Positions 31,266 to 50,461 of a DNA stretch of 61,599 bases are shown here, piece after piece. A program made the position numbers and the translations under genes. Source of the stretch: a virus (Duplodnaviria; Caudoviricetes); IMG/VR virus record IMGVR_UViG_3300006030_000002, positions 1 to 61,599 of that record. The stretch is one strand, 5' to 3'. The number at the start of each line of letters is the position of its first letter. Position 1 is the stretch's first letter. The notes beneath the pieces are model-generated. The model worked only from the letters and a program-made list of their open reading frames with translations. It had not been told where the DNA came from and made no database searches.

Positions 31266-31327
31266 ATGGGTGTAGTCGATGAAGCGTTTGGAGTTTTTAT
31301 TAAACGTGTTTAATGAAAGGGAGAGCC

Positions 31328-32457: not shown

Positions 32458-32486
32458 TTAAACCCGTTTAATAAATGGAGAGTGCG

Positions 32487-32863: not shown

Positions 32864-32892
32864 TTAAACCCGTTTAATAAAAGGAGAGTGTG

Positions 32893-33831
32893 ATGAGCCT
32901 GATCAAACCGATGCATTACTACGAGCGCATGGCGAAGCAATGGGAGATCACGAAGCCCATACGTGGGCGTGGTGTGGACACGCGCCCCATCGGTAAGCGT
33001 AGCCGTGACTGGGAGTTGATCGTGCGCATGTTGGGAGCCGACGGCATCGTGACGTACGGTGCGAAACTTTATAACACCGTGTGCGTGGAGTATTTCCCCG
33101 ACAGTTCATTCATCGTGCGGCATGATGACTGGGCTACGGCAAAGACCGCCGAGTTCATATCTGCCACGAGTCCATTCAGGTGCCGCAAGGTGCATAACTT
33201 TTTGTGGATGTTCGCCCATGACGGCGACGGGGTGAAGGCAATACCCGTAACCAAGGACGGCATAAAGTTCATGCACGATGGGACAACGTGGCGGTGCGTC
33301 AACATGCCCAGTATGAAGCGTAGGAAAGTCGGCTCCTACAAGGCGAAGCAAGCGCGTAAGCCACTCGCACCGTTCCTGAAGTTCGCTAAAACATTCTTGC
33401 GCATGAGCGATGGGTGGGTGATGCACGAGACATGCAAGCATGTGTTGGGTTGGAAACACGACAATCACGGGTACGGTGAGAGCATTCGCTCGGATGAAGA
33501 GCGCGTATACAAGATGCTCACCGACTCCACCGACCCGCTGATGACATTGCCCGAGGACGAGCGACACTTGTTCATGCTGTGCCTGATGTCGAGAATGAGT
33601 TGGTTCAATGACTCATACGATAACAAGCGCAGGGTTGCCGAACGGTTTGAATATGTCGAGAACTACAACGGGACTTCGTGGCCGCGTGTATCGGAATTCT
33701 ACGATGTGCGCGTGGAGTACGAACGTCTCAAGCACGTGCTGTATCGGTGGGTCAATCGGTTTGAGGATGTTCACGTGTACGTTGATGCGGAGATTGGCAG
33801 CAAGCCGATCTTGAATGCTTGCATTGCCTAG
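32893..33831 (+). CDS. hypothetical protein
   Basis: 312 aa; AAGGAGAGTG RBS. Confidence 0.8.
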   Translation: MSLIKPMHYYERMAKQWEITKPIRGRGVDTRPIGKRSRDWELIVRMLGADGIVTYGAKLYNTVCVEYFPDSSFIVRHDDWATAKTAEFISATSPFRCRKVHNFLWMFAHDGDGVKAIPVTKDGIKFMHDGTTWRCVNMPSMKRRKVGSYKAKQARKPLAPFLKFAKTFLRMSDGWVMHETCKHVLGWKHDNHGYGESIRSDEERVYKMLTDSTDPLMTLPEDERHLFMLCLMSRMSWFNDSYDNKRRVAERFEYVENYNGTSWPRVSEFYDVRVEYERLKHVLYRWVNRFEDVHVYVDAEIGSKPILNACIA

Positions 33832-33847
33832 TGCGTTGTGTTACAAT
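33819..33847 (+). promoter_or_regulatory. sigma70 promoter
   Basis: TTGCAT-17-TACAAT with extended TG. Confidence 0.7.
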
Positions 33848-33913
33848 GTAACTTGTTGGTAGGTGTTGTCTTTGTTCGTTTCTATTAAACCTGTTTAATA
33901 AAAGGAGAGTGCA

Positions 33914-34987
33914 ATGGCTGTTCTTAACTTTGGTCACAGCGTTTCCCTCAACGAGTTTGCCCATGCAATTCAAACCGTGGGTACTCAAGTAACCATCATC
34001 GGGCAAGGTGAGATGGGCATCGGTAAATCTACCGTGCTGAAGATTCTCGCCAAGCGTATGCCCGAGTATGAAACTGCGTATATTGATTGCACCCTGCTCG
34101 ACTTGGGTGACTTCGCGCTGCCGTATGTGGTCGAGGAGAACGGAGTCAAGGTCACGCACTTTGCACCCAACGCACGGTTCAAGTTCCATACCGGCAAGCC
34201 CGTGCTCATTATGTTGGACGAGATCGGCAAGGCGATGAAGGCAGTCAAGAATGTGCTGTTGACTCTCATACTGGAGAAGCGCATCGGGGATCATTACTTG
34301 CCCAAGGGTTCGATTGTGTTTGCCACTACTAACCTTGCAGCCGAGGGACTGGGCGACATGTTGGAGGCGCATGCCCGGAACCGTGCGGTAGTGGTGAAGA
34401 TTCGCAAGTCTGACGTTGATGAATGGATCGAGTGGGCTATCGGTAATGGGATTGCGCCCGAGATCATTGCGTGGGTTAAGCAGTTCCCGCAATCGCTTGC
34501 GTCATTTACTGACTCGTCGCAGAAGGACAACCCATACATTCCGAATCCCACCCGTGCGGGTGATGGTGCAGTGGTCACGCCCCGGTCATTGGAGAAGGCA
34601 AGTCACATTGCTAAACAAAGAGCCACGCTTGGCGATGCGCTGACCATCTCCCTGCTGACTGGCACTATTGGTGAGAGCGCAGCCCGAGACATGCAAGCAT
34701 TCTTCACCGTGGTGGACAAGTTGCCCACGTGGGAGCAGATTACCAAGACACCCGACACGGCTAAACTTCCTGACGATGCGGTGGCACGGTGCATCCTTGT
34801 GTTCAGCGCGATCACTCGGGTTGAGAAGGAGACGCTCGGCAAGTGGATGGACTATCTCAAGCGCATGGACAAGGAGTGGCAAGCCCTGTTCGCCACTAGC
34901 GTGATGAAGTCCACGCTGAAACAGCCGTTCTGTATCAGCAACAAGGAGTTCAAGGACTGGGCGATTGCTAACCAATGGTTGTTTTAA
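33914..34987 (+). CDS. MoxR/dynein-related AAA+ ATPase
   Basis: GEMGIGKS (Walker A), IMLDE (Walker B), ATTN sensor, TPRS. Confidence 0.85.
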   Translation: MAVLNFGHSVSLNEFAHAIQTVGTQVTIIGQGEMGIGKSTVLKILAKRMPEYETAYIDCTLLDLGDFALPYVVEENGVKVTHFAPNARFKFHTGKPVLIMLDEIGKAMKAVKNVLLTLILEKRIGDHYLPKGSIVFATTNLAAEGLGDMLEAHARNRAVVVKIRKSDVDEWIEWAIGNGIAPEIIAWVKQFPQSLASFTDSSQKDNPYIPNPTRAGDGAVVTPRSLEKASHIAKQRATLGDALTISLLTGTIGESAARDMQAFFTVVDKLPTWEQITKTPDTAKLPDDAVARCILVFSAITRVEKETLGKWMDYLKRMDKEWQALFATSVMKSTLKQPFCISNKEFKDWAIANQWLF

Positions 34988-34999
34988 TAGGAGAGTGAC

Positions 35000-35215
35000 A
35001 TGTACGTACCAATGCTTAACCTGAAGGGGAGCAAGACGAAGTACAGGAAGTACGTGCGTAGGGGTATCCGTATGCGTGAGCCGAAGTTCAAGGAGTTGCG
35101 CGAGTCGATGTCGGATCGTCAGGCACGTAACGCACGGGAGTACAAGTATGTGTGCCATCAAGTGATGGTGTGGCCCCCGTTCGGTAGCGCGTGGCGAAAC
35201 GAATGGAGCATGTAA
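35000..35215 (+). CDS. hypothetical basic protein
   Basis: 71 aa; GGAGAGTGAC RBS. Confidence 0.6.
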   Translation: MYVPMLNLKGSKTKYRKYVRRGIRMREPKFKELRESMSDRQARNAREYKYVCHQVMVWPPFGSAWRNEWSM

Positions 35216-35243
35216 TTAAACATGTTTAATAAAGGAGAGTGAC

Positions 35244-36485
35244 ATGGGTAAGTTGACTGTTGAGCAGATGGTTCAGAAGGAGCACGTGTGGCTGATGAAG
35301 AACCCGAAGTATTGCCTGTACTCGGGGATCATCATGGTTGGCAAGACCGAAGTGTGTGATGACGTTCCGACTGCGTGTACCAACGGGCGCGACACGTTCT
35401 ATGGGCGCAAGTTCATGAGCAAGTTGTCGGTGAAGGAAGCCCGTGCCGTGATCTTGCATGAGAATCTGCACAAGGCGTTCCGGCATACAACTTTGTGGAA
35501 GCATCTATACAAGGACTGGCCCATGTTGGCGAACATGGCATGCGACTACGTGATCAACATCCTGATCCACGACTCTGACCCGCAAGGTTTGGAGGTGAAG
35601 TTGCCTGACTGTGCGCTGCTCGACTTTGATTACCGTGGGCTCGATGCGGGTGAGGTGTTTCGTAGGTTGAAGAAGCAAGCCGAGGGTATCGGCCCGAGCG
35701 GTGCGGGTGGGTCGGGGTCGATCCGCGTCAAGACTGTGGGGGATCAGGTCGGCAAGGACATTCCAGTTGTCAAGGGTGACAGCGTTGGTGATGGGTTCGA
35801 CGAGCACGACTGGGAAGGCGCGGAGGAGATGACGCAGGAAGAGAAGGAGACGCTTGCGAAGGACATCGATCAGGCGCTGCGTCAGGGTGCGATCCTCGCA
35901 GGAAAGATGTCTGCCGATGTGCCACGTGAGATCGGTGAGTTGACCGAGGCGAAGGTGGACTGGCGCGAGGCGCTGCGTGAGTTCGTGACTTCCTTCTGTC
36001 AGGAGCGCGATACGAGCACGTGGCGCAGACCATCCCGTAGGTGGATCGGACAAGATGTTTACATGCCGAGCAGCATCGGTGAGTCAGTTGGTCGCATGAC
36101 GGTGGCTATCGATATGTCCGGGTCTATCGGGCAGGAGGAGATCGGTGCGTTCCTGTCCGAGTTGCGTGAGATCTGCAAGACGGTGACGCCGGAGGGTATC
36201 GACCTGCTGTATTGGGATACGCAAGTGTGTCAGCACGAGAAGTACGAGCGTGACCAGTTGGAGAACCTGTTGAGCACGACAAAGCCGCGAGGCGGTGGCG
36301 GGACTGCGCCGCAATGCATCGTGAACTACATGAAGGCGAAGCGACTCAAGCCCGAGTGTGCGGTGATCCTGACCGACGGGTATGTGGGTGATGACTGGGG
36401 TAAGGGGTGGGAGTGTCCGACGTTGTGGGGTATCACGACGAAGGGTATCTCGTCGAGTGTTGGCAAGACGGTGCATGTGTCGTGA
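35244..36485 (+). CDS. DUF2201-type metallopeptidase-VWA protein
   Basis: TACTNG, HENLH (HExxH), MIDAS residues DMSGS...GGGT...LTDG. Confidence 0.85.
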   Translation: MGKLTVEQMVQKEHVWLMKNPKYCLYSGIIMVGKTEVCDDVPTACTNGRDTFYGRKFMSKLSVKEARAVILHENLHKAFRHTTLWKHLYKDWPMLANMACDYVINILIHDSDPQGLEVKLPDCALLDFDYRGLDAGEVFRRLKKQAEGIGPSGAGGSGSIRVKTVGDQVGKDIPVVKGDSVGDGFDEHDWEGAEEMTQEEKETLAKDIDQALRQGAILAGKMSADVPREIGELTEAKVDWREALREFVTSFCQERDTSTWRRPSRRWIGQDVYMPSSIGESVGRMTVAIDMSGSIGQEEIGAFLSELREICKTVTPEGIDLLYWDTQVCQHEKYERDQLENLLSTTKPRGGGGTAPQCIVNYMKAKRLKPECAVILTDGYVGDDWGKGWECPTLWGITTKGISSSVGKTVHVS

Positions 36486-36670
36486 AGCATGCGTGGGGTA
36501 TTTGTCAGGTGGGTGACTTTTTCATGCCTGCTCGGGCTTTCAATTGGAGTGGGATGAGTGAGTGGAGTTATATGCAGGAGTACGGCACCATGAGTTACGA
36601 AGAAGCACACGCAATTTCAAAACTACTTAACGCAACCAACCAAGGAGAGTGCAATCATGATTCAGAATAG
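36482..36670 (+). CDS. hypothetical protein
   Basis: GTGA overlap with the VWA gene stop; fills the gap. Confidence 0.45.
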   Translation: MKHAWGICQVGDFFMPARAFNWSGMSEWSYMQEYGTMSYEEAHAISKLLNATNQGECNHDSE

Positions 36671-37523
36671 TTCTGTATTGGTCGATGTGAACGTGTCGGT
36701 GTGGACGGGTCGCAAGATGGACAAGAAGGTGTCCGACGAGATCGACGCCGCGAAGAACACCAAGGTACGTGGCGGTAACTACCACAAGCATCTGCTTGCC
36801 GGTGCGTTGCAGTTGGAGAACATTCAGAAGTTGGTGGGTGGTGTGCGCATGTGGCACTACAATCAGACGTTGCCGTGGGCTGATAGCGGTGCGCGTCTGT
36901 TACCCATGAAAAACTTCTTTGACTACAAGGCCATGCTCGGTAACTTTGAGAAGCAGTTCGATGACCTTGTGCAGAAGTTTCTTGCTGACTACCCGACGCT
37001 TGTCTCTGCGGCTGCGTTCCAGTTGGGTGACTTGTTCGATGCGGGTGAGTACCCTGATGTGGAGAAGTTGCGTGACAAGTTTCGGTTCCGCTACGTGTTC
37101 ATGCCCGTGCCCGAGGTGGGTGACTTCCGCGTAGATGTGAGCGAGGCAAGCAAGAAGGAGTTGCAATCACAGTACGAGAAGTTTTACGAAGAGCGCTTGG
37201 CTTCCGCCACGAAAGACGCATGGGACAGGCTGCATGAGTGCGTCAAGCATATGAGCGAGAAGTTGGCTGACGCAGAAGTTCCACGTGAAACGAAGTATGG
37301 GGCGAATCACACGAAGATTTTCCGCGATTCCCTCATCGACAACGCCAACGAGTTGTGTGCGCTGCTGACCAAACTTAACGTGGCTAACGATCCCAAGTTG
37401 GAGCAAGCCCGTCAGGAGTTGGAGCGCACCATCAACGGCAAGTCTGCGGATGCGCTGCGTAACAGCGATGATCTGCGCCGTGACACCAAGGCCAAGGTGG
37501 ACAAGATCTTGGAAATGTTTTGA
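36657..37523 (+). CDS. DUF3150-like protein
   Basis: LVDVNVSVWTGRKMDK...TLPW...RLLP pattern; usual partner of AAA-VWA pairs. Confidence 0.6.
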   Translation: MIQNSSVLVDVNVSVWTGRKMDKKVSDEIDAAKNTKVRGGNYHKHLLAGALQLENIQKLVGGVRMWHYNQTLPWADSGARLLPMKNFFDYKAMLGNFEKQFDDLVQKFLADYPTLVSAAAFQLGDLFDAGEYPDVEKLRDKFRFRYVFMPVPEVGDFRVDVSEASKKELQSQYEKFYEERLASATKDAWDRLHECVKHMSEKLADAEVPRETKYGANHTKIFRDSLIDNANELCALLTKLNVANDPKLEQARQELERTINGKSADALRNSDDLRRDTKAKVDKILEMF

Positions 37524-37560
37524 GAGTTATTAAACCCTTTTAATAAATTGGGAGAGTGAC

Positions 37561-38418
37561 ATGCTAGTTTTTGAGAAACCGAACGCGAGTGTCGTGCCTG
37601 AAATTAGTTTGGTGACGATGCTCAACGCATTGAGTGTCGGGCACGTGAGCCGGTATCCGATCAACGTCAAGTATCGTATGGCGAGTGAGGCGTGGCTCGT
37701 GGATAGCCGCCTACCATTCAACGAGTGGACGAAGGAAGAGGCGATTGCAATCATTAATCTTTCAAAGAACGACGATGGCAAGGATGAATATCACCTGTAT
37801 AGCAAACGCATCAAGAATGAGAAGTTCAATAATTTCTCACCCGGATACAACACTCGCCAAACCTCCGATGCGAAGAAAGCCTTGAGGCAACTGAAAGATA
37901 TTGCTACGTCCTTGGAGCCGAAAGAACTTGCACGGCGTAGCGAAAGTATCTATATGGAAATGAATTCGTGGGCGCGTGAACCCGTAGGCGAAATAAACAG
38001 CCTTGTCTCGCAAGTGCGTCGTGAAGATGTGCTCAACGAAGTGCTGTATCTCGCCTCTGTGGGTGTTCAGTTCAAGTCAGACATATTCAAGAAAATCAGC
38101 GTACACGGGCGAGAATTGCAACTGGAAGCGATACGCAGGGAGAAAGCCGCGTCATCTGAAAACACGTTTGTTCTTTACGTGTACCAACAACCTGATGGGA
38201 TCGTTAGTGTTATCGCGGATGGCAGGATGAATTCGGGCATGGCAAACCTGTCATGGACTTACGAGAACATGGAGTCCGTGCCTGATGTCATACGGCAACA
38301 AATTGCTCTGTTGAATCTGTGCGAAGAGGACAAGTACGTTCCCGAGGTCGGCAAGCGCGATCCGCAGAAAGGCTACTGGGTTCAGGTGGACAGGGAAAAA
38401 TTCACGCCCTCCACTTGA
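37561..38418 (+). CDS. hypothetical protein
   Basis: 285 aa; GGGAGAGTGAC RBS. Confidence 0.8.
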   Translation: MLVFEKPNASVVPEISLVTMLNALSVGHVSRYPINVKYRMASEAWLVDSRLPFNEWTKEEAIAIINLSKNDDGKDEYHLYSKRIKNEKFNNFSPGYNTRQTSDAKKALRQLKDIATSLEPKELARRSESIYMEMNSWAREPVGEINSLVSQVRREDVLNEVLYLASVGVQFKSDIFKKISVHGRELQLEAIRREKAASSENTFVLYVYQQPDGIVSVIADGRMNSGMANLSWTYENMESVPDVIRQQIALLNLCEEDKYVPEVGKRDPQKGYWVQVDREKFTPST

Positions 38419-38443
38419 CGCATGCCTCATGCTTCCATATATT
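38415..38443 (+). promoter_or_regulatory. sigma70 promoter
   Basis: TTGACG-17-TATATT. Confidence 0.65.
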
Positions 38444-38467
38444 GAAAGGGTTGGACTAACTGTAACT

Positions 38468-38770
38468 ATGCTTCAATCAAATAACTTACGGTACGTAGTC
38501 ATTGCGCATGTGTGGGACAACGGGGACATCGACTACATCAACGTGCTCGACAACAAGATGCTGACCACAGAGGTACTGGACGGACGGTTGGTGCCTGACT
38601 GGGTGCGTGAGCGTGTAGCGTTGTTGCGGTTGTGTGATGTCAACAAAACAGGACAAGGAGAAATTCTCGGCAGAAAATTTACAGACCATATGATCTACGT
38701 GTACCTGAACCACAAAGAACATAAGCAACTAACAAAGATATCCAACTCAACTCAAGGAGCAGAGCAGTGA
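38468..38770 (+). CDS. hypothetical protein
   Basis: Start placed after the promoter; VPDWVRERVALLRLC resembles VPDVIRQQIALLNLC of the upstream gene. Confidence 0.6.
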   Translation: MLQSNNLRYVVIAHVWDNGDIDYINVLDNKMLTTEVLDGRLVPDWVRERVALLRLCDVNKTGQGEILGRKFTDHMIYVYLNHKEHKQLTKISNSTQGAEQ

Positions 38771-39174
38771 AACTCACCAAAATACAGAAGATCACCAACT
38801 ACGCAAAGAACCACCCTGAAGGGTTCTCCCCCAAGCAACTCATGGAGGACACGAAAATCAAGGACAAAAACATTTGGGTTACTCTGTCCAAGATGAAGAA
38901 GCAGGGCTTGCTGAAGCACAATACCAAGACGCGCAAGTACAAACTATTAAATACGTTTAATAAACCGGGGAAGGTGAAACTTGATCCGGCGCGTGAGAAC
39001 GATGTGCAAACCATCTCCTACTTGGTGGATCAGACGGTTGACTTGGCCACCGCTAGGGATGAAGCCAACAAGAAGTATGAGGATGCGCTTGCCATCATCC
39101 GCTACTTGGAGCACAAGTTGATCACCTCCATCCAGTACGCTACGCGCAGCGATGACGCCCGAGGCAAAGGTTAA
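38767..39174 (+). CDS. winged-helix DNA-binding protein (putative)
   Basis: FSPKQLMEDT.IKDKNIWVTLSKMKKQGLLKH...YKL pattern plus C-terminal coiled coil; AAGGAG RBS. Confidence 0.6.
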   Translation: MKLTKIQKITNYAKNHPEGFSPKQLMEDTKIKDKNIWVTLSKMKKQGLLKHNTKTRKYKLLNTFNKPGKVKLDPARENDVQTISYLVDQTVDLATARDEANKKYEDALAIIRYLEHKLITSIQYATRSDDARGKG

Positions 39175-39445
39175 GAAGAAGGTCGTTGCCATACTGAAAG
39201 AGTGTGGCGCGTACTACTTCTACCCAGTCACGGGTGGCTATGGTCGCTCGGGGGTTCCTGACATTGTGGCGTGTTGGAAGGGACGGTTCATCGGCATCGA
39301 GTGTAAAGCCGGGGACAACACCACCACACCGCTGCAAGAGAAGAACCTCCGAGAGATCAGAGAAAGCGGTGGTACAGCCTTGGTCATCACAGAGAAAGAA
39401 ATACCTTGGCTCACGAACGCAGTACGAAACAACCTTCTCTTCTAA
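39152..39445 (+). CDS. VRR-NUC domain nuclease
   Basis: PEAKVK...GVPDIVAC..GRFIGIECKAG....TPLQ. Confidence 0.85.
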   Translation: MTPEAKVKKKVVAILKECGAYYFYPVTGGYGRSGVPDIVACWKGRFIGIECKAGDNTTTPLQEKNLREIRESGGTALVITEKEIPWLTNAVRNNLLF

Positions 39446-39660
39446 AGCCCCGTGCTAGGCCAAGCGATGGGAAGCGGCTTCGGACATTACGATTTGTTCG
39501 GAGTCGTTTCTCTGCTTGCGCATCAGACGTTGCGGCTTACTTGCGCGTGAGCAAGCGTCAGGCATCCCGTTACCTCCTCCACCTGACGAACGAGAATCTC
39601 ATTTATCCCCGACACCAAGTCGGTAATGCCATATACTTTTCCCAACGGAGAAAACAATGA
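39406..39660 (+). CDS. HTH protein (start uncertain)
   Basis: ASDVAAYLRVSKRQASRYLLHL. Confidence 0.5.
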   Translation: MAHERSTKQPSLLKPRARPSDGKRLRTLRFVRSRFSACASDVAAYLRVSKRQASRYLLHLTNENLIYPRHQVGNAIYFSQRRKQ

Positions 39661-39950
39661 AGTTCCAAAACCTCATGCTTGCCATGCAACTGGCTCGGGT
39701 GAACAACCTTAACACTACCGACATCTTTATTCTTAACGAGGTCTTTTGCGCCGATAACAACACAACTACTGTCATGAAGATTGTGGAGCAGAAGTTTGCG
39801 TCACACGTTACAATCCATAACCACCTCAAAAAACTATGCAAAGCGGGGTTCCTCATCAAAAAAGAGCACCCCAAAAACATGCGGTTCAAAAGCGTCGAAC
39901 CGGGCGAAGAATTTGTAACCTTCCTACGTAAGTTGGGGGAAATCGAATGA
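39657..39950 (+). CDS. MarR-like winged-helix protein
   Basis: SHVTIHNHLKKLCKAGFL...NMRFKSV; GGAG RBS. Confidence 0.6.
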   Translation: MKFQNLMLAMQLARVNNLNTTDIFILNEVFCADNNTTTVMKIVEQKFASHVTIHNHLKKLCKAGFLIKKEHPKNMRFKSVEPGEEFVTFLRKLGEIE

Positions 39951-40063
39951 ACAAGTTCACGCCAAGAACGCGCCGACTTACCCCACGTGAAGAGCAACTG
40001 ACCAAGCGCAAGCGGCGCATCAAAGATCGGATGGCAAACGAAAGCCGGAAAAAGAACAGATGA
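39947..40063 (+). CDS. 38-aa Arg/Lys-rich peptide
   Basis: ATGA overlaps at both ends; MNKFTPRTRRLTPREEQLTKRKRRIKDRMANESRKKNR. Confidence 0.5.
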   Translation: MNKFTPRTRRLTPREEQLTKRKRRIKDRMANESRKKNR

Positions 40064-40380
40064 AATGCATGAAGTGTAGTTACGCCACAGAAGTTATTGA
40101 GACGCAGAAGTTTGATACGTTTGTTTGGCGTCGGCGTAGGTGCATGAAGTGCGATCATCGGTTCTCAACCCACGAGACATTTGTCGAGACAGCGCAGACA
40201 ACAAGACTGTCAACCAAGCCAAAGCCTGATCAAAAGCCGAAGGTAATAAGAAGGGTAGTCCCCGTTCCAAAAAACAACATCACCAAGTTGCCGGTGGTGA
40301 ATAAGCGCAGACTGATTGAATCCCTACGAGAAGAACTAGAAAGAAAAAACCGAGAATGTGATGGCGATACTGACGATTGA
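40060..40380 (+). CDS. NrdR-N-like zinc-ribbon protein
   Basis: MKCMKC...RRRRCMKCDHRFSTHE. Confidence 0.7.
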   Translation: MKCMKCSYATEVIETQKFDTFVWRRRRCMKCDHRFSTHETFVETAQTTRLSTKPKPDQKPKVIRRVVPVPKNNITKLPVVNKRRLIESLREELERKNRECDGDTDD

Positions 40381-42187
40381 CTTTGAAACTTATTACGACA
40401 AGGCTTTCAGCCTCTCGAAGCTAACCACAGAAGAATACGTACGCCACGATTTGTTTGAGGTTATTGGCGTAGCCATAGCCGAGGACAAGAATGAACCGCA
40501 GTGGTTTAGCGGAACACACCAAGAAGTTGCTGCGTGGCTGCGGCAGTTTGACTGGGCGAACTCGTTTGTTCTTGCGCACAACACCCAATTCGATGGGGCA
40601 ATCCTGTCATGGAAGTTTGGCATCAAGCCGAAGGCGTGGCTCGATACGCTGTGCATGGCGCGGGCGATACATGGGGTGGATGCGGGCGGTAGTCTCAAGG
40701 CACTTGCCGAACGCTACAACATAGGAGTCAAAGGGGATGAAGTTATTAGTGCGATTGGCAAACGGCGTACTGATTTTGATTCTGAAAGCCTTGCTGCTTA
40801 CGGTAACTATTGCATCAATGATGTTGGTCTTACCTTTAGTTTGTTTAATAAGTTTCTTGACGGGTTTCCCTCCAAGGAACTCAAGGTCATAGACTGCACC
40901 CTGCGCATGTTCATCGAGCCGAAGTTGGTGTTGGACACGGCGCTCTTGAAGCAGCACTTGGAGAACGTAAAAACAAACAAGGCAAAGTTGCTTGAGGCTG
41001 CGGCCACCGACCGAGACATCCTCATGTCTAACGACAAGTTTGCAGAACTTCTTCTCAAGCTCGGCGTAGACCCACCCAAGAAGATCTCTGCCCGTACTGG
41101 CAAGGAAGCATGGGCATTCGCCAAAACCGATGAGAACTTCAAGGCGTTGCTTGAGCATCCTGATCCGAAGATACAGACCTTGGTCGGTGCTCGGTTGGGG
41201 ACCAAGACCACTCTTGAGGAAACACGTACAGAGAGGTTTATACAAATCTCCGAACGTGGTCCTTTGCCGGTACCTATTAAATACTACGCAGCCCATACTG
41301 GGCGGTGGGGCGGTGATGACAAGATCAATCTTCAGAATCTTCCGAGCCGTGGGCAGAACGCCGGTAAGTTGAAGAAAGCCATTCAAGCCCCCGAGGGCTA
41401 CGTGGTCATCGATTGCGACTCCAGTCAGATCGAAGCGCGGACGGTGGCGTGGTTGGCGGGGCAGGATGACTTGGTTGAAGCGTTCGCCAAGGGTGAAGAT
41501 GTTTATAAGATCATGGCCTCTGCCATCTACAACAAACCCGCCGAAGAAGTAACCAAGGAAGAACGGTTCGTCGGCAAGACTACGATTCTTGGCGCGGGGT
41601 ACGGCATGGGCGCCAAGAAGTTTCAGGCGCAGTTAAAGACATTCGGTGTGGACATAGAAGAGCAGGAAGCCCAACGCATCATCAGCGTCTATCGGGGTAC
41701 GTACAAGCACATCCCCGCGTTGTGGAAACAAGGACAGCGGTGCATCGAGGCAATGGTCACGAACAATGCGGCTGACTACGGGGTTGTTGATGCCGTAAAG
41801 TTTGACGCCCGTAGACAGGGGTTTCTCCTACCAAGTGGTTTATGGCAGCGGTATGAAGGTGTACGTACAACTACTACCCCTGAAGGCAACGAGGAATATG
41901 TTTATGACACACGGCGAGGCGCGGTCAAGATCTATGGTGGCAAGCTGACCGAGAACATCTGCCAAGCCTTGGCACGGTGCGTGATTGCCGAACAGATGCT
42001 GAAAATCGGCAATAAGTATCAGGTGGTCTTGACAGTACACGACGCTGTGTGCTGTGTTGCACCCGAAGAAGAAGCCGACGAGGCTCGGGCGTACGTTGAG
42101 GAGTGCATGCGTTGGCGTCCCGATTGGGCGCAGACGTTACCTTTGAATTGTGAATCGGGAATGGGGAAGAGTTATGGAGAGTGCTAA
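40361..42187 (+). CDS. polA: DNA polymerase family A with 3'-5' exonuclease
   Basis: IDFET, AHNTQFD, NLQNLP, motif A DSSQIEAR, motif B RFVGKTTILGAGYG, motif C TVHD. Confidence 0.95.
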   Translation: MAILTIDFETYYDKAFSLSKLTTEEYVRHDLFEVIGVAIAEDKNEPQWFSGTHQEVAAWLRQFDWANSFVLAHNTQFDGAILSWKFGIKPKAWLDTLCMARAIHGVDAGGSLKALAERYNIGVKGDEVISAIGKRRTDFDSESLAAYGNYCINDVGLTFSLFNKFLDGFPSKELKVIDCTLRMFIEPKLVLDTALLKQHLENVKTNKAKLLEAAATDRDILMSNDKFAELLLKLGVDPPKKISARTGKEAWAFAKTDENFKALLEHPDPKIQTLVGARLGTKTTLEETRTERFIQISERGPLPVPIKYYAAHTGRWGGDDKINLQNLPSRGQNAGKLKKAIQAPEGYVVIDCDSSQIEARTVAWLAGQDDLVEAFAKGEDVYKIMASAIYNKPAEEVTKEERFVGKTTILGAGYGMGAKKFQAQLKTFGVDIEEQEAQRIISVYRGTYKHIPALWKQGQRCIEAMVTNNAADYGVVDAVKFDARRQGFLLPSGLWQRYEGVRTTTTPEGNEEYVYDTRRGAVKIYGGKLTENICQALARCVIAEQMLKIGNKYQVVLTVHDAVCCVAPEEEADEARAYVEECMRWRPDWAQTLPLNCESGMGKSYGEC

Positions 42188-42581
42188 AAGAAACGAGACA
42201 AAAATTAGACGGCGCTTTGCTCTTTATCTACGACGGCAAAGTTATACATACGAAGAGATCGGTAAGTTTTTTCGCGTAAGCACTAGTCGGGCATATGAAT
42301 TGGTAGCTGCGGGTAAAAAGCAGATATTGTCGGACATATGGGAAACAGACTTGGCTCACGAAAAAGCCATCGAACTGACGGGGCAAATCTTTCACGGATT
42401 GCCGTTACTTGTGCGGTATCAAAAAGAAATTGAACATTTATTTGAGGATATGAATGAGCGACATCATCGACTACGCAATGCCGTGCATGAAAGCGGAACG
42501 AGCACTGAAGAAGCTGCACGACGCGATGTTGGCACGGGATTACAACGAGGCACTAATACAAGCGACTCACGCAATCGTTGA
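42174..42581 (+). CDS. sigma region 4-like HTH protein
   Basis: YTYEEIGKFFRVSTSRAYELV. Confidence 0.5.
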   Translation: MESAKRNETKIRRRFALYLRRQSYTYEEIGKFFRVSTSRAYELVAAGKKQILSDIWETDLAHEKAIELTGQIFHGLPLLVRYQKEIEHLFEDMNERHHRLRNAVHESGTSTEEAARRDVGTGLQRGTNTSDSRNR

Positions 42582-42654
42582 AGCAAGACTCGCACGTACC
42601 GCAATCCTTCACGAAAAGGAGCAACATGAGCAAAGACGAGGAATACCTACGTGA
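42454..42654 (+). CDS. hypothetical protein
   Basis: 66 aa; GAGGA RBS. Confidence 0.6.
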   Translation: MSDIIDYAMPCMKAERALKKLHDAMLARDYNEALIQATHAIVEARLARTAILHEKEQHEQRRGIPT

Positions 42655-42832
42655 CTTCATGGCGATGTTTGCCATGTTGGGGTTGATAGGAAAAAATTTA
42701 CCTGACGATGAATTTGTTTCGGTACGGGCTTATGAAATGGCAGATGCCATGATGACCGCACGGGCTATCACGCCCGACAAAGAGGGTATCGCTGCCATCA
42801 AGCCGAGAAAAAAATATGAGCGCAAAGCCTAG
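42626..42832 (+). CDS. hypothetical protein
   Basis: AAGGAG RBS; LRDFMAMFAM...AYEMADAMM. Confidence 0.7.
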   Translation: MSKDEEYLRDFMAMFAMLGLIGKNLPDDEFVSVRAYEMADAMMTARAITPDKEGIAAIKPRKKYERKA

Positions 42833-43499
42833 TTACACATGGTCTTACTCGTCTCTTGACCTGTTCAAGCAGTGTCCGCACAAGTATTACCGACTCAAAG
42901 TTAAGAAGGACATAACCGAACCGCTATCGGATGCCATCATCTATGGAAACCGTGCGCACAAGGCTGCGGAGGAATACATCAAGAACGACACCCCGATCCC
43001 CAAAGAGTTTGAATTCATGCAGCGTCCATTGCAGACGCTGAAGGAGAAGGAGGGGGAAAAGCTGTGCGAGTTTCGCATGGGGTTGACATACCAGTTGGAG
43101 CCGTGCAAATTCTTGGATCAGAACGTGTGGTGGCGGGGTATCGCGGATCTAATTGTGCTTCAGCCTGACCGCGCTTGGATCGTGGACTACAAAACGGGCA
43201 AGTCATCCAAGTATGCAGATGTGAAGCAGTTGGAGTTGATGGCGCTGTCGGTGTTCAAGCACTTCCCACAAGTGCAGAAAGTAAAAGCAGGACTTCTGTT
43301 TGTTGTGGCAAATGATTTTGTAAAAGCCGACTTCCATGCACGCGATGAGTTTGTGATGTGGCGTCCATGGTTTGAAGACACCGAGCGGTTGGAGAAGGCG
43401 TTGGAACTGGATGTATGGAACCCACGCCCAAACTTCACATGCAAGGGGTGGTGTCCTGTTACCGACTGTACTCATTGGGAACCAAAGAGGGGTAAGTAA
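42816..43499 (+). CDS. PD-(D/E)XK Cas4-like exonuclease
   Basis: SYSSL...CP, GIADL, IVDYKTG, QLEL, C-terminal CKGWCPVTDC. Confidence 0.85.
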   Translation: MSAKPSYTWSYSSLDLFKQCPHKYYRLKVKKDITEPLSDAIIYGNRAHKAAEEYIKNDTPIPKEFEFMQRPLQTLKEKEGEKLCEFRMGLTYQLEPCKFLDQNVWWRGIADLIVLQPDRAWIVDYKTGKSSKYADVKQLELMALSVFKHFPQVQKVKAGLLFVVANDFVKADFHARDEFVMWRPWFEDTERLEKALELDVWNPRPNFTCKGWCPVTDCTHWEPKRGK

Positions 43500-43664
43500 A
43501 TGACCCGAGCGGATGCGATGCAGATTGCTCTTGATGCGCTTTTGACTTGCCGCCTTGAAGGGGATGGATGGTCGGGACCGAATCAGGTCTATGACGAAGC
43601 CAAGGTGCAAGCGGCGATCAAGGCGCTCGATACTTTCTTGAAGGATGAGGAAAAGTCAGCATGA
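43500..43664 (+). CDS. hypothetical protein (54 aa, below ORF-track cutoff)
   Basis: GAGGGG RBS; fills the gap; ATGA overlap with next gene. Confidence 0.55.
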   Translation: MTRADAMQIALDALLTCRLEGDGWSGPNQVYDEAKVQAAIKALDTFLKDEEKSA

Positions 43665-43906
43665 AAGAGCAGACCTTGAGGGATGTAATCCACGACGCGG
43701 TTGAACGCCCCAAGCACTATACGAACCATCCTAGCGGGGTGGAATGTGTGGACATTACAGAACATATGAACTTCTGCCTTGGAAACGCTGTAAAATATAT
43801 TTGGAGAGCCGATCTTAAAAACGATGCTATCGAAGATCTGCGTAAGGCGGCTTGGTACATCCAAAGAGAAATTGCACGAAGGGAGAAATTAAATGGCAAA
43901 GCGTAA
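43661..43906 (+). CDS. DUF3310 (T7 gp1.7-like nucleotide kinase family)
   Basis: V.RPKHY...ECVD...FCLGNAVKYIWRA..K...EDLRKAAWY. Confidence 0.85.
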   Translation: MKEQTLRDVIHDAVERPKHYTNHPSGVECVDITEHMNFCLGNAVKYIWRADLKNDAIEDLRKAAWYIQREIARREKLNGKA

Positions 43907-44177
43907 CTACGCGCAGGAGTACGAGCGGTATCAAGGGACTCCCGAACAGGTCAAGAAGCGCATGGCACGTAACCGTGCGCGGTACAAGCTGATGAAAGAG
44001 GGCAAGGTCCGCAAGGGTGATGGCATGGACGTTGCCCACGTGAAAGCACTCGACAAGGGCGGCACGAACGGTGACGGGTTGAAGGTGCAGTCTCGGTCAG
44101 CCAACCGTTCGTTCAAGCGTGACAGCAAAGGCAACCTTGTGTCCGAGGTCAGCAAAAAAGAACGCAAACGGGGTTGA
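43893..44177 (+). CDS. small HNH-like protein
   Basis: DGMDVAHVKALDKGGTN...ANRS. Confidence 0.6.
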   Translation: MAKRNYAQEYERYQGTPEQVKKRMARNRARYKLMKEGKVRKGDGMDVAHVKALDKGGTNGDGLKVQSRSANRSFKRDSKGNLVSEVSKKERKRG

Positions 44178-44202
44178 CACGGTGCAGCCTCGGCGGTAAA
44201 TT
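44174..44202 (+). promoter_or_regulatory. sigma70 promoter
   Basis: TTGACA-17-TAAATT. Confidence 0.75.
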
Positions 44203-44204
44203 GT

Positions 44205-44396
44205 AGTCTCGTTGGAAGTGCGTTTCGGATTCAGGTGTGAGTGTATGAAACGCATCGTGACCCAAAGTCACTCTCCCAAGAACCACACCAGTCTGCGCGT
44301 TATTTAGGAGCGTGAGCAGACCGAGTGGCTACCGTAAGTAGCCAAGAATTTTCAACTCAAAAGACCACTTTTGGGTGTTTTACCATTGGAGAGTGT
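44205..44396 (+). ncRNA. putative structured sRNA / long 5' leader with anti-GGAGAGTG seed
   Basis: Five predicted hairpins plus a possible pseudoknot downstream of a consensus promoter; GTCACTCTCCCAA at 44267-44279. Confidence 0.55.
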
Positions 44397-45953
44397 GTGC
44401 AGATAATAGAAAACAAAGCGCTGCTGCTGAAGGTACGTGAGCCAAGCCGTATCACTGCGGTGATCCCGAAGTCAAAGCAGATCAGCGAACACGAAGTGTT
44501 GGTGAAGTGGGGACTGGAAGAAGTACAAGTCCTCAAGAACATGCGCATGAAGAACGTGCCCTCCCCCATCGAGGCGCATTACGATTGGCCCGGACTGTAC
44601 AGGCCGTTCGCCCACCAACGCACCACATCTGCCTTCCTCACCATGCACCGCCGTGCGTTCTGCTTCAACGAGCAGGGCACGGGCAAGACTTCAAGCGTGA
44701 TATGGGCGTCCGACTACTTGATGAAGATCGGCGCTATACGCAGGGTGCTCGTCATCTGCCCCCTGTCAATCATGTCATCCGCATGGGAAGCAGACCTGTT
44801 CAAGTTTGCCATGCACCGCACGGTGGCTATCGCCCACAGTTATTCACGAGACAAGCGTATTGACGCAGTGCAGTCCGAAGCTGAATACGTGATCATCAAC
44901 TACGACGGTTTGGGAATCATTGCGGACGCCGTAAAAGAAGCAGCGTTCGATTTAATCGTGGTAGACGAAGCCAACGCCTACAAAAATGTCAGCACGAGAC
45001 GTTGGAAAGTGTTGAATTCACTGATCAAGCCCGAGACTTGGGTATGGATGCTGACAGGAACACCCGCTGCCCAGTCACCTGTTGATGCGTACGGACTGGC
45101 AAAGATCGTCAACCCCAACGGCGTACCAAAGTTTTTTGGGTCATTCCGTGATCAGGTGATGAGCAAGATCACACAGTTCAAGTGGATACCAAAGAAGTCA
45201 GCCGAGCGTACGGTTCACGAAGCCCTGCAACCCGCGATCCGGTTCACCAAAGAAGAATGCCTTGACCTACCGGAGATGACGTACACGACGCGGGAAGTCC
45301 CCCTGACTCCACAGCAACAGAAGTATTACGAAATACTTCGCAAGAACATGGCGACGCACGCAGCCGGGGAGGAGATTACAACAATCAATGCTGCTGCCAA
45401 TCTTAATAAATTACTTCAATTGTCGTGTGGCGCGGTCTACTCGGATACTGGTGAGACTGTGGCGTTCGACGCCAAGAACAGGATGAGTGCGCTACTTGAG
45501 GTCATCGAGGAAGCAAGCCACAAAGTTATTGTATTTGCCCCGTTCAGACATGCCATCGAGATCATCACTTCAGAGCTTCGTGTAAACAAAATTGAATGTG
45601 AAATGATTCACGGCGGGGTGCCAGTCAACAAACGTACAGATATTTTTAATTCGTTCCAAACCACAGCATCACCACACGTTCTCGTCATTCAGCCCCAAGC
45701 TGCCGCGCACGGGGTAACTCTCCACGCTGCCAACGTGGTGGTGTGGTGGGGACCGATCACATCTACGGAAACTTATCTACAGGCGAACGCTCGTGTGCAT
45801 CGCGCTGGTCAACGTAACCCATGCACTGTTGTGCACATTGAAGGCAGCCCTGTCGAGAAGCGTATATATAAGATGTTGTCAGAGAAGATGGATATCCACA
45901 ACCGACTCGTTGAACTTTACAAAAATGAAATCGAAGAGGACTTGACAGTGTAA
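44397..45953 (+). CDS. SNF2-family (SF2) helicase
   Basis: GTG at 44397 after GGAGAGTG; EQGTGKT, VVDEA, LTGTP, QANARVHRAGQ. Confidence 0.9.
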   Translation: MQIIENKALLLKVREPSRITAVIPKSKQISEHEVLVKWGLEEVQVLKNMRMKNVPSPIEAHYDWPGLYRPFAHQRTTSAFLTMHRRAFCFNEQGTGKTSSVIWASDYLMKIGAIRRVLVICPLSIMSSAWEADLFKFAMHRTVAIAHSYSRDKRIDAVQSEAEYVIINYDGLGIIADAVKEAAFDLIVVDEANAYKNVSTRRWKVLNSLIKPETWVWMLTGTPAAQSPVDAYGLAKIVNPNGVPKFFGSFRDQVMSKITQFKWIPKKSAERTVHEALQPAIRFTKEECLDLPEMTYTTREVPLTPQQQKYYEILRKNMATHAAGEEITTINAAANLNKLLQLSCGAVYSDTGETVAFDAKNRMSALLEVIEEASHKVIVFAPFRHAIEIITSELRVNKIECEMIHGGVPVNKRTDIFNSFQTTASPHVLVIQPQAAAHGVTLHAANVVVWWGPITSTETYLQANARVHRAGQRNPCTVVHIEGSPVEKRIYKMLSEKMDIHNRLVELYKNEIEEDLTV

Positions 45954-45970
45954 TACACAGCCCCCATACT
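45942..45970 (+). promoter_or_regulatory. sigma70 promoter
   Basis: TTGACA-17-CATACT; spacer holds inverted repeat GTGTA-A-TACAC. Confidence 0.65.
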
Positions 45971-45999
45971 TAATTCAATCTGACAAAAGGAGAGTGCGA

Positions 46000-46383
46000 A
46001 TGAGCGACAAACCGACAGCCGAAAAACTGGCACGGGTATACACCAAGATCCGCGACAAGCGCCGTGAATTGGCGAAGCAAGACGAAGAACTAAAAGAACA
46101 GTTGGATCTTGTGGCGAACGAACTGCTTGCAATCTGCAAAGAGCAAGGTGCATCCACCATCCGTACTCAATACGGCACTGTCTCCCGCAGGGTCAGCAAG
46201 AACTTTTGGACTTCTGACTGGGATTCTTTCTACAAATTCATCAAGGAGAATGACGCTTTCTCACTCATGCATCAGCGTATCAACAACACAAACATGTCGC
46301 AGTTTCTTGAGGAGAACCCGCACTTGCTTCCCCCCGGCTTGAATGCTGAAGTAAACCAAACCGTAACCATCATCAAACGATAA
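46000..46383 (+). CDS. conserved replication-module protein
   Basis: ATG at 46000 after AAGGAGAGTG; IRTQYGTV...DWDSFYKFI...PPGLN. Confidence 0.75.
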   Translation: MSDKPTAEKLARVYTKIRDKRRELAKQDEELKEQLDLVANELLAICKEQGASTIRTQYGTVSRRVSKNFWTSDWDSFYKFIKENDAFSLMHQRINNTNMSQFLEENPHLLPPGLNAEVNQTVTIIKR

Positions 46384-47506: not shown

Positions 47507-47591
47507 TGAGGGGGGCTAGGGTCGCACCCGAAAAGGATGCGCCGTCACATCCCTGCCCTACTCATCTTTTGACGGCTATTCCAAAGGCGGC
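47507..47591 (+). ncRNA. structured RNA element upstream of primase (C4/CI-antisense-like architecture)
   Basis: Two hairpins inside a closing stem; loop GCCGTCA is complementary to TGACGGC at 47570-47576. Confidence 0.5.
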
Positions 47592-47593: not shown

Positions 47594-50461
47594 ATGACAA
47601 CACGGGAGCAGTTTCTCTCAGCGGTGCTTCCACCCTTGTCGGAGGGTGAGCATTACTGCAACTGGGGGAATACAAAGGACAAGGTCCGGCAGCGGTTCGC
47701 AACATCTGTAGAACAACTTAGTGCGCAATCAAACGAACTACAAAGCGCTGGTTTCAATTCTTTCTTCGCCTTGGCGAAGTTTGGCCCCAAAGAGAGCGGA
47801 CGCTATGCAACCAACGCGCTTGCTCTCAAGTCTTTCTTCATCGACCTTGATTGCGGTGAAGGCAAACCGTACCCCACGTTGGATGATGGACTCGTTGCGC
47901 TCAAGAACTTCTGCAAGGCAACTGGCTTACCCAAGCCCACCATCGTTCGATCAGGGCGCGGGGCACACGTGTACTGGATTCTTGAGGAGCAGATGCTCCG
48001 TCAGGACTGGAAGCCATACGCCGAGCGCCTGAAGAACCTGTGCACCGAGCACAAGTTTGAGATTGACTACGCAGTACCGGCCGATGCAGCGCGTGTCTTG
48101 CGCATGGTGGGGTCTGATCATGTCAAAGACCCGACTAACCCGATCCCTGTAGAGATCCTGTATTTCGCGCCGCTTGTGCCCAACGAGCGGATGAAGCAGT
48201 TGTTGGAACCCACGCAGGACATTCTCTCGGCACTAGACCGCAAGGACTTCAAGCGTCCGATGGATGCCGTGACTGCGGCGTTGATGGGGGCCACCGAGTC
48301 AAAGTTTAAGACAATCCTCATCAAGTCTGTGGAGGGCAAAGGTTGCGCACAGATTGCCCACATCTACGACAACCAAGCCACTATTGAGGAGCCACTGTGG
48401 AGAGCCGGGTTGTCGATTGCGCAGCATTGTGTTGACCGGGACAAGGGCATTCACGCGATATCAAAGCAGCATCCGGAGTACAACGCTGAGACTACAGACA
48501 AGAAAGCACGAGAAACCAAAGGACCGTACACCTGCGATACGTTCAAGAAGCTGAACCCGAGTGGCTGCGAAGGGTGCAAGCAGAGGATCACTTCCCCGAT
48601 TCAGATTGGCAAGGAGATCGTCGAGGCTACCGAAGCAGACAACATCGTTACGGGTCTGCAAATCATCAACGGAGATGTGAAAGAAGAAACCGTCTACCAC
48701 ATCCCCAAGTATCCGTTTCCATTCTTCCGTGGCAAAAACGGCGGCATTTTCAGACACAACAAGGAAGGCGAGGACAAAGACGAACCGGCTGATGAGTTGA
48801 TCTATGCGTACGACTTTTACGTGGTCAAGCGCATGAAAGACCCTGACTTGGGCGAGACAATTCAACTCCGTCTGCACTTACCCCAAGATGGTGTGCGGGA
48901 CTTCATCATGTCCCTGAAGGACGCTATGTCCAAGGAGAAGTTTGTGGGCACTGTTGCCTCTCATGGCATAACGGTGCTTGGGAAGAAACAGGAAAAACTT
49001 ATGCAATACATTGCCCGATGGGTGGAAGAATTACAGATGAGAATGATTGCCGAGAACGCACACAAACAGTTTGGTTGGACAGAGAACAACGATGCCATCA
49101 TTGTCGGAGATCGAGAGATTCGGGCAGACAAGATCGGATTCAACCCTCCGGCTGCGCCCACCATGCCGCACATACCGCTATTCAAGCCAAAGGGTGACTT
49201 CCAAGTATGGAAAGATGTCATCAACATCTACGCCAACCCCGGCATGGAGCGCAAGGCGTTTGCTTTCTTCCTTGGGTTTGGCAGTCTACTGATGAAGTTC
49301 ACCGTGCTTGATGGGTTCCTTCTCAACCTCGTCAGTCGGGAATCAGGATCAGGCAAGACCACCGTTCTACAAGCCATCAACAGCATCTACGGGCGTCCCA
49401 AAGAGTTAATGCTCACCCGTAAAGACACGCTCAACGCCTGTATGCAGCGACTTGGCACTATGCAGAACCTGTGCGTGACTATGGATGAGATAACCAACAT
49501 GCCTCCCGAGCACTTGTCACAACTTGTTTATGACGTAAGTTCGGGTCGTGGCAAGAACCGCATGCGGCAGCATGAGAACGCAGAGCGCTTGAACCACGCC
49601 AAGTGGCAGACTGGTATGGTTACTTCATCCAACCGCTACATCACTGACGTACTGCTATCGCTCAAGAATTATCCTGATGGTGAGTTGAAGCGGATTCTTG
49701 AGATCCCCATGAAAGCCACCGGGGAAGAAGATGCCACGTGGTCACGCTTGCACTTTGAGCGACTGTTCCATAACTACGGGCATGCCGTGGACATACTGGC
49801 GCAGAACATGGTGACTCAACTGCCCGACATTCAGAAGGTGTTGGCAGACACGCAGTTGCGCATGGATCAGGTGGCAAAGGTAAAGAATGCCGAGCGCTTT
49901 TGGGCAGGCATGGCTTCGCTGTCAATCGCAGGAGGCACCCTTGCCAAGCACTGGGGACTGCATGACATCCCCATCAAACCCGTGTTCAACTATGCAGTCT
50001 CATTGATCGAGGAAGCCCGTGGGCGCTCTAGTGAGTACGCCTTTGATACGGATGAATTCCTTGGCGCGTTCCTGCAACGACACTTCCACGAGATTCTCGT
50101 CATCAACGGCGACAGGGATAACCGCACGGGACTGGAGCATGCCCCCATCCGTGAACCCCGTGGAGCGCTGACCATTCGGTATGAGCCTGACACCAAGATG
50201 CTGTTTATTGTGGCTCGGGCGTTCCGCGAGGACTGCGCCAAGGTGATGGCAAACTACGAGGAGACGATTGCCCCCTACCGAAAGAACGGGTCGCTACTTG
50301 GGGTCAAGAAGAAACGCATGACAACTGGCACCGTTGCCAACGCTCAAGCCCCCGTCAATGCCCTGTGTTTTGATACCAAGAAATTAGGGTTCTTCAAAGA
50401 TCCAGTACTGCTAAAGCCCGATGAAGATAATGGGGATCCCCCTCCTGATCCAGTGGAATAA
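47594..50461 (+). CDS. primase-helicase (AEP/RepB-like primase, Zn region, DUF927-type helicase)
   Basis: FIDLD, SGRGAHVYW, EPLWRAGLS, C..F...CEGC, ESGSGKTT, VTMDEIT. Confidence 0.88.
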   Translation: MTTREQFLSAVLPPLSEGEHYCNWGNTKDKVRQRFATSVEQLSAQSNELQSAGFNSFFALAKFGPKESGRYATNALALKSFFIDLDCGEGKPYPTLDDGLVALKNFCKATGLPKPTIVRSGRGAHVYWILEEQMLRQDWKPYAERLKNLCTEHKFEIDYAVPADAARVLRMVGSDHVKDPTNPIPVEILYFAPLVPNERMKQLLEPTQDILSALDRKDFKRPMDAVTAALMGATESKFKTILIKSVEGKGCAQIAHIYDNQATIEEPLWRAGLSIAQHCVDRDKGIHAISKQHPEYNAETTDKKARETKGPYTCDTFKKLNPSGCEGCKQRITSPIQIGKEIVEATEADNIVTGLQIINGDVKEETVYHIPKYPFPFFRGKNGGIFRHNKEGEDKDEPADELIYAYDFYVVKRMKDPDLGETIQLRLHLPQDGVRDFIMSLKDAMSKEKFVGTVASHGITVLGKKQEKLMQYIARWVEELQMRMIAENAHKQFGWTENNDAIIVGDREIRADKIGFNPPAAPTMPHIPLFKPKGDFQVWKDVINIYANPGMERKAFAFFLGFGSLLMKFTVLDGFLLNLVSRESGSGKTTVLQAINSIYGRPKELMLTRKDTLNACMQRLGTMQNLCVTMDEITNMPPEHLSQLVYDVSSGRGKNRMRQHENAERLNHAKWQTGMVTSSNRYITDVLLSLKNYPDGELKRILEIPMKATGEEDATWSRLHFERLFHNYGHAVDILAQNMVTQLPDIQKVLADTQLRMDQVAKVKNAERFWAGMASLSIAGGTLAKHWGLHDIPIKPVFNYAVSLIEEARGRSSEYAFDTDEFLGAFLQRHFHEILVINGDRDNRTGLEHAPIREPRGALTIRYEPDTKMLFIVARAFREDCAKVMANYEETIAPYRKNGSLLGVKKKRMTTGTVANAQAPVNALCFDTKKLGFFKDPVLLKPDEDNGDPPPDPVE

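Follow-up and report, generated by a model that had tools for sequence, protein, structure and literature searches.

A conserved pseudoknotted RNA upstream of the helicase gene in uncultured phages and a lineage-restricted antisense tract within it

In the replication module of an uncultured phage, a 219-nt spacer separates a small basic ORF from a helicase gene, which raises the question of whether this DNA specifies an RNA and, if so, on what that RNA would act. The window analyzed here, 61,599 bp in length, is a complete virus record with terminal repeats, and near-identical DNA is found in sequencing runs labelled freshwater or aquatic metagenomes; none of the runs listed for it is an RNA run. 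The replication module lies on the + strand in the order DNA polymerase A, PD-(D/E)XK nuclease, 94-aa basic ORF, spacer, SNF2 helicase and more replication genes. A first-pass annotation of the window had proposed that the spacer encodes a promoter-driven, non-coding, structured RNA, and that a tract within it acts as antisense to the start regions of about nine genes. These two parts of the proposal can be judged separately, first by the conservation of the RNA and then by that of the tract.

The promoter is of the sigma-70 type. Its -35 box (TTGACA, 44174-44179) overlaps the stop codon of the upstream ORF, which ends at 44177, and is separated by 17 nt from the -10 box (TAAATT, 44197-44202); together the hexamers match the consensus at 10 of 12 positions in our promoter scan, and from their placement we infer a transcription start near 44209. 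The hexamers are conserved in 24 of 27 distinct homologues, with spacers that vary, and the promoter is absent from three relatives (L006, L011 and L012). Open reading frames on the + strand after the promoter are at most 31 aa long. We considered and rejected a small protein gene inside the stretch, as these ORFs are short and the ATG at 44246 is not conserved in L002 or L005, and also a tRNA or tmRNA, none of which was detected in the window or at the RNA in nine other loci.

Table 1. Coordinates of the RNA, its promoter and the flanking genes in the window
Feature	Position	Strand	Basis
94-aa basic ORF upstream of the RNA	43893-44177	+	ORF list
Sigma-70-type promoter, TTGACA-17-TAAATT	44174-44202	+	Sequence, promoter scan
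P1 hairpin	44219-44226/44247-44254	+	Both-side changes at 8 of 8 pairs, 88% of cells paired; same helix from RNAalifold
P2 short hairpin, GTGAC/GTCAC	44257-44261/44267-44271	+	Sequence; variable region
Seed, GTCACTCTCCCAA, 3' half of P2 plus single-stranded linker	44267-44279	+	Complement of early-gene start cassette
Pseudoknot 3' strand, CACACC, within conserved AAC-CACACC-AG	44284-44289	+	Pairs with P1 loop in 27 of 27
P3 hairpin, base stem GTCTGC/GCAGAC	44291-44296/44316-44321	+	98.8% of cells paired, double changes at 5 of 6 pairs; RNAalifold
P4 hairpin, TGGCTAC-CGTAA-GTAGCCA	44326-44332/44338-44344	+	97.5% of cells paired, double changes at 4 of 6 pairs
P5 hairpin, CTCAAAAG/CTTTTGGG, then TGTTTT	44356-44363/44368-44375, to 44381	+	Sequence; not called a terminator by the scan
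Helicase Shine-Dalgarno GGAGAGTG and GTG start	44388-44399	+	Sequence, helicase alignment
SNF2-family helicase gene	44397-45953	+	Pfam SNF2-rel_dom 1.5e-24, Helicase_C 6.2e-17

Folding of the 193-nt stretch gave a z-score of -3.16 relative to shuffled sequences. We aligned 27 distinct sequences, including that of the window, with MAFFT and scored P1, the pseudoknot, P3, P4 and P5 (Table 1). Pairing was observed in 95.0% of 935 cells, compared with 29.7-40.1% when the partners were slid by 1-3 columns, and 25 of the 35 pairs showed double changes; none of 500 shuffles reached the observed pairing or covariation score. RNAalifold, supplied with no input structure, returned P1, P3, P4 and P5, with compensatory changes at 20 of its 26 pairs. 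The P1 loop carries the conserved sequence AGGTGTGAGTG, which includes the 5' strand of the pseudoknot (GGTGTG, 44234-44239). All 6 bp between this strand and its downstream partner are paired in every one of the 27 sequences, with compensatory changes at four of the six pairs (variants include GGTGCG/CGCACC, GGTACG/CGTATC, GGCGTG/CGCGCC and GGTGCA/TGCACC). A loop that pairs with a downstream strand, with compensatory change, characterizes an H-type pseudoknot, and the conserved structured domain with covariation is of the kind seen in cis-regulatory leaders and riboswitches. The structure belongs to the + strand, because G-U pairs are frequent (14 GU against 13 GC at one pseudoknot pair, 17 UG at one P5 pair) and would be mismatches if read on the other strand. 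Conservation is also strong among the unpaired nucleotides that surround the pseudoknot.

The remaining elements differ in how they are kept. P2 is replaced in relatives by a hairpin of unrelated sequence, or by none (L016, L022 and L038). P4 is preceded by a conserved CCGAG, and this segment is the most widely retained in BLAST comparisons with relatives. A hairpin at the position of P5, before the Shine-Dalgarno sequence, is also present in relatives that have 69-79-nt spacers and no RNA. Much of the first-pass annotation is borne out here: the consensus promoter with no credible gene behind it, all five hairpins and the GGTGTG/CACACC pseudoknot are present, and the stems covary, which it had named as one check. 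Promoter retention, short ORFs and covariation together support its promoter-driven, non-coding, structured RNA. The conserved pseudoknotted RNA before the helicase gene is real.

Contacts between hairpin loops were considered separately. A kissing interaction of the P3 and P4 loops was rejected for the subtype of the window, since the loops are complementary in 7 of 27 sequences against 4.4 expected, which is not significant. As a side observation, the interior of P3 is pyrimidine-biased in the 57 distinct cores of the wider family described below (among the matches listed): 25 of these contain CTCC and 24 contain CTTTC, whereas GGAG is present in 8 and GAAAG in none. One subtype has GAAAG as the loop of the hairpin that comes next, which suggests a loop-loop contact there.

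Where the transcript ends bears on what kind of RNA this is. Our terminator scan found no terminator-like site in 43500-45000, so transcription should continue into the helicase gene, and the T-run that follows P5 is absent in L107 and L004. On both grounds, the RNA most plausibly forms the 5' portion of the helicase transcript. Measured against what is expected of an Hfq-type sRNA, the stretch has no terminator with a U tail in 43500-45000, and the antisense tract is not conserved across homologues. The helicase start was assigned to the GTG at 44397, where the helicases of relatives align from residue 1.

In many relatives the RNA and the helicase gene are separated by an additional small ORF, about 69 aa long (L006, L011-L015, L017, L019, L021, L025-L031, L042, L047-L049, L052 and L061); it has no PHROG match, and in L021 it starts MTREEFEALLKIQDRY. 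The window has no such ORF, and its helicase GTG is placed on the ribosome-binding region of that ORF, as if by a precise deletion.

The tract that the first-pass annotation had singled out, hereafter the seed (Table 1), is the exact reverse complement of 37548-37560. It complements part of a repeated start cassette that runs, in order, ATTAAAC-NN-GTTTAAT (a hairpin), AAA, GGAGAGTG, two bases and ATG; the hairpin of this cassette occurs in nine copies between 30875 and 38947 (+), before early genes. The window contains 12 copies of GGAGAGTG compared with 1.83 expected, with + strand copies before the starts at 32487, 32893, 33914, 35000, 35244, 36657, 37561, 44397 and 46000 and a further copy at 42176 inside ATGGAGAGTG. 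Complementarity to the seed extends over 13 nt at 37561, 10 nt at 35000 and 35244, and 8 nt at the remaining starts, just as had been annotated. Among the cassette-bearing genes are a MoxR-like AAA ATPase (33914-34987) and a DUF2201 metallopeptidase-like plus VWA-like protein (35244-36485), which appear to form a pair.

We compared the RNA with shuffled versions against 44 Shine-Dalgarno-preceded candidate starts of + strand ORFs, leaving out the helicase's own start. The longest complement, 13 nt, was reached by 0 of 200 shuffles. A complement of 8 nt or more was present in nine start regions, whereas shuffles averaged 1.27 and never exceeded 7; the nine comprise eight with the cassette and one chance 9-nt match at 43113. 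The nine targets that had been annotated are repeats of a single cassette and do not count as independent events. Duplex energies of the whole RNA against start regions were uninformative because large loops were allowed, and a 19-nt seed segment was therefore run against the + strand genome-wide. The best duplex was with the 37561 start region (-25.2 kcal/mol), and 35000 and 35244 reached -19.6. The six 8-nt sites, at -14.0 to -14.6 kcal/mol, fell short of the 1% background tail (-15.0), and some 100 sites lay at or below -13. In the partition function the last 8 nt of the seed were unpaired with probabilities of 0.39-0.89, and its GTCAC part with a probability of 0.0.

These figures bear directly on the reading in which the RNA is a trans-acting antisense sRNA whose tract at 44267-44279 would pair with the GGAGAGTG cassettes and block early-gene ribosome-binding sites once the replication operon is on. 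The length and number of the complements in comparison with shuffles, the rank of the 37561 duplex and the largely unpaired linker part all speak for it, as does a 15-nt block that the window, L002, L005 and L107 share without change amid flanking sequence that differs. Within the same genome, however, the weakness of the 8-nt sites, the burial of the first 5 nt of the seed in P2 and the lack of a terminator or conserved U tail count against it.

The distribution of the seed among relatives weighs further against this reading. The seed (CACTCTCC) sits in P2 and the linker, the least conserved part of the fold, and is present in the spacers of only 2 of 72 relatives, L002 and L005 (86.5% and 81.2% identical to the window in the spacer), and in L107; all three are near relatives, and together with the window they are its only holders. 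It is missing from the other 70 spacers and occurs in 0 of 57 other family cores among the matches listed, of which one has CTCC in the linker. In the larger relatives G002, G003 and G004 the RNA is present with no excess of start complementarity (P = 1.0, 0.365 and 0.375, respectively). G001 and G004 instead use a different cassette, ATTAAC-AGGA-GTTAAT-AA-N-ATG, with the Shine-Dalgarno sequence in the hairpin loop and about 10 copies each, and have only 3 (G001) and 5 (G004) copies of GGAGAGTG. Their RNA shows no matching change, contrary to the expectation that seed and start motif would vary together. Conversely, L006, L011 and L012 have GGAGAGTG at the downstream start and lack the seed, which in part realizes the outcome that the first-pass annotation had named as telling against its proposal.

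What the cassettes of these genomes have in common is the AT-rich palindrome and not GGAGAGTG; this element may signal translation or processing, or serve as an operator for a protein. We found no relatives of the 37561 protein, and a metagenome scan for seed-bearing RNAs on long contigs yielded only three short contigs. Contigs from four DNA runs gave fragmentary cover of 30800-46100, from which joint variation of seed and cassette could not be read.

Taken together, a multi-target antisense sRNA is quite unlikely as the function of this RNA. The non-random complementarity on which that proposal was built stands for this genome, and its extension beyond three near relatives does not; the suggested early-to-replication or dormancy switch finds no support. 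A lineage-specific antisense role is nevertheless possible, given that the seed is statistically non-random in this genome, and for the same reason, that such complementarity is improbable by chance here, to call the seed incidental may be wrong.

The seed could also act within its own transcript. A purely cis-acting leader, in which CACTCTCC would pair with the helicase GGAGAGTG at 44388-44395 and gate translation, has in its favor a perfect 8-nt complement (-14.0 kcal/mol) on a single RNA. In the seed-bearing L002, L005 and L107, however, GGAGACAGAGTG or GGAGATCGAGTG stands at the helicase start, which leaves only about 5 nt able to pair, and the rarity of CTCC in the linker (1 of 57 family cores among the matches listed) points the same way. 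The cis block of the helicase that had been annotated is thereby lost in the very relatives that keep the seed, and we regard this mechanism as extremely improbable.

A search with the helicase recovered 80 related viral loci. In 72 of these the distance from the small ORF to the helicase was measurable, in length classes from 0 to 917 nt, and 32 of the 72 spacers hold a homologue of the structured core, giving with the window the 27 distinct sequences used above. Presence of the core is patchy among close relatives. In relatives such as L008, L009 and L067 the promoter, P4 and P5 are retained without it, and the core of P1, pseudoknot and P3 is therefore a separable accessory module.

We then searched for the family with a pattern of its two conserved strands, ignoring the helicase, which matched at least 119 viral contigs. 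Filters for P1 and P3 pairing were passed by 68 of 117 new loci among the matches listed, compared with 11% of trials with shuffled flanks, and these 68 strict loci represent 57 distinct cores, again among the matches listed. As the counts derive from a sequence pattern plus pairing filters, the set is biased towards the conserved loop sequence. A helicase lies within 1 kb downstream in 58 of the 68 strict hits (among the matches listed), and the 3' part of the RNA differs between subtypes.

Other copies lie in different gene contexts. The core also follows a primase-like ORF (L168 and L174) or a terminase-like ORF (L173), with a terminator and a convergent gene after it; in seven Xanthomonadales-type genome contigs (L232, L234, L247, L256, L264, L265 and L279) it follows a TerS-like ORF and is again succeeded by a terminator and a convergent gene; and in L253 it lies upstream of a PD-(D/E)XK nuclease gene. 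Placement before a helicase thus predominates, and 3'-terminal copies without a downstream gene occur too. The core in the Xanthomonadales-type copies is of a minimal form and immediately follows the TerS-like ORF, which is about 150 aa long; CCAAGTTGG-like repeats come after the core in five of the seven (L232, L234, L256, L265 and L279), and a terminator in all seven. Several of these sites are within a few kb of tRNA genes, and they look like phage-derived islands.

Copies at the 3' ends of operons, with nothing downstream to regulate, favor an autonomous RNA over a cis leader. The core of P1, pseudoknot and P3 would then be released or independent and would bind or titrate a phage or host protein, its position before the helicase being incidental. 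The varied neighbors just listed, the patchy occurrence among close relatives, the strong conservation of unpaired nucleotides at the pseudoknot and the RNA's own promoter in 24 of 27 homologues are all consistent with such an RNA. Against it stand the position directly upstream of a helicase in most strict hits, an orientation that is the same as that of the upstream ORF in the contexts examined, and the lack, in the window, of a recognized processing site, terminator or partner. We consider it unlikely, yet a serious rival to the cis reading.

The same compact, pseudoknotted core, with invariant junction nucleotides and a modular, largely context-independent occurrence, might instead be a self-cleaving ribozyme or another processing signal, by which the replication mRNA would be shortened at its 5' end. 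This analogy is one of resemblance: no cleavage site is inferable, and no Rfam ribozyme matched in the window (E<=10), in eight relatives (E<=1) or in other subtypes (E<=5), which makes a ribozyme very unlikely. More generally, no relevant Rfam 15 match was obtained for 43800-44800 (E<=10), for the RNA in eight relatives (E<=1), for 13 minimal-form loci (gathering score) or for five further loci (E<=5).

Cultured phages gave little more. The spacer DNA had no match among them, and the RNAs of two relatives used as queries gave matches of 21-29 nt only; a match in Vibrio phage Her was rejected as a P4-like hairpin without the pseudoknot core. The nearest cultured helicase relatives are at most 41% identical, and in Pseudomonas phage Rollin and Rhizobium phage RHph_TM3_14A, the two that were inspected, the helicase is not preceded by a spacer. 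These searches thus recovered no cultured phage with the RNA. Judged by these sequence comparisons, the RNA family appears to be new, of a known general kind, and has no Rfam entry.

The gene upstream of the RNA offers a candidate partner. The 94-aa ORF is rich in lysine and arginine; it has no Pfam family at E<=0.01, and its sole PHROG match, phrog_4590, is of unknown function, so the label "HNH" that it had been given is not upheld. Of the 68 strict family hits among the matches listed, 54 have a homologue of this ORF no more than 150 nt upstream of the RNA, and because it adjoins the RNA so often, its product is a candidate RNA-binding partner. Homologues are present also in relatives without the RNA.

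A second RNA was noted in the same module. An int-alpA RNA (Rfam RF02996) at 47509-47575 (+) scores 37.7 bits against a gathering score of 35.8 and lies directly upstream of a 955-aa DUF927 gene (47594-50461), so the replication module holds more than one leader RNA. It occupies the same relative position in five of eight scanned relatives, above the gathering score in L021 and L016 and just below it in L014, L018 and L046.

Our preferred reading, held tentatively, is that the module acts in cis, as RNA, within the transcript that contains it. The stretch would be the 5'-proximal part of a helicase or replication-operon transcript that starts from a host-type (sigma-70) promoter. Some 115 nt of it, comprising P1, the H-type pseudoknot and P3, fold into the conserved module of a widespread phage RNA family and are followed by the leader hairpins P4 and P5 and then by the helicase ribosome-binding site. 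A putative factor would recognize the conserved unpaired nucleotides that the pseudoknot displays, and processing, stability or translation of the replication genes would be controlled in this way. A search for an expression platform found no terminator, no conserved pairing between seed and Shine-Dalgarno sequence, and P4 and P5 that exist without the core. The antisense tract would be a recent acquisition in the variable P2 and linker of the window's lineage, not the function of the family, and would be either neutral or a source of an auxiliary antisense effect.

A combined reading is conceivable, in which the pseudoknotted RNA is a stable scaffold whose variable P2 and linker evolve lineage-specific antisense tracts; in this genome, where the tract matches the repeated start cassette, the onset of the replication operon would shut off no fewer than three and as many as nine early genes through base pairing. 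We consider this quite unlikely.

The analysis turns a guess from a single genome into a well-supported pseudoknotted RNA family in at least 119 viral contigs and some bacterial chromosomes, with a conserved host-type promoter and no counterpart in Rfam. In a clade of uncultured phages with near-identical DNA in freshwater metagenome runs, the RNA stands at the entry to the replication genes, which makes it a candidate control point of the phage life cycle. If the antisense tract is functional, it shows a structured scaffold gaining new regulatory targets. If it is not, the case is a caution: a variable loop can come to complement a repeated motif strikingly well without that match being what the RNA is for.

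Among known systems, the c4 RNA of phages P1 and P7 and the CI RNA of P4 are structured RNAs in a phage operon leader with tracts complementary to ribosome-binding regions. They are closest in arrangement, being likewise promoter-proximal leader RNAs with exposed complementary tracts. The RNA described here differs in having no match to Rfam C4, in its H-type pseudoknot, in putative targets that are many early genes elsewhere in the genome, and in a complementary tract that is not conserved in the family. The Rfam family C4 is named in PMC5320573. The int-alpA RNA is, like the present one, a small structured RNA of the same genome that is kept in relatives, with a different fold and family.

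The proposed antisense effect most resembles the multi-gene shut-off at start regions by T4 RegA and RegB. As described in PMC3014915, the target of RegB is GGAG, which it cuts within early-gene translation initiation regions, and RegA contends with ribosomes for about 30 mRNAs. The two are proteins, whereas a putative RNA base pairing would act here, and if silencing in trans proved true the RNA would be their RNA counterpart.

A 2023 survey of IMG/VR predicted 8,495 new RNA motifs (PMC10690425), supported by covariation, from uncultured phage contigs and in many cases upstream of particular genes, as is the RNA of the window. In the main text of that paper "helicase" and "HNH" have 0 occurrences each, and the RNA may already be among its motifs.

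Closest in placement is the leader of T4 gene 32, where a pseudoknot serves translational control and nucleates binding of the gene's own product (PMC3014915). There, as here, a pseudoknot lies in the 5' leader of a phage replication gene; unlike that of gene 32, the module described here is also found away from replication genes.
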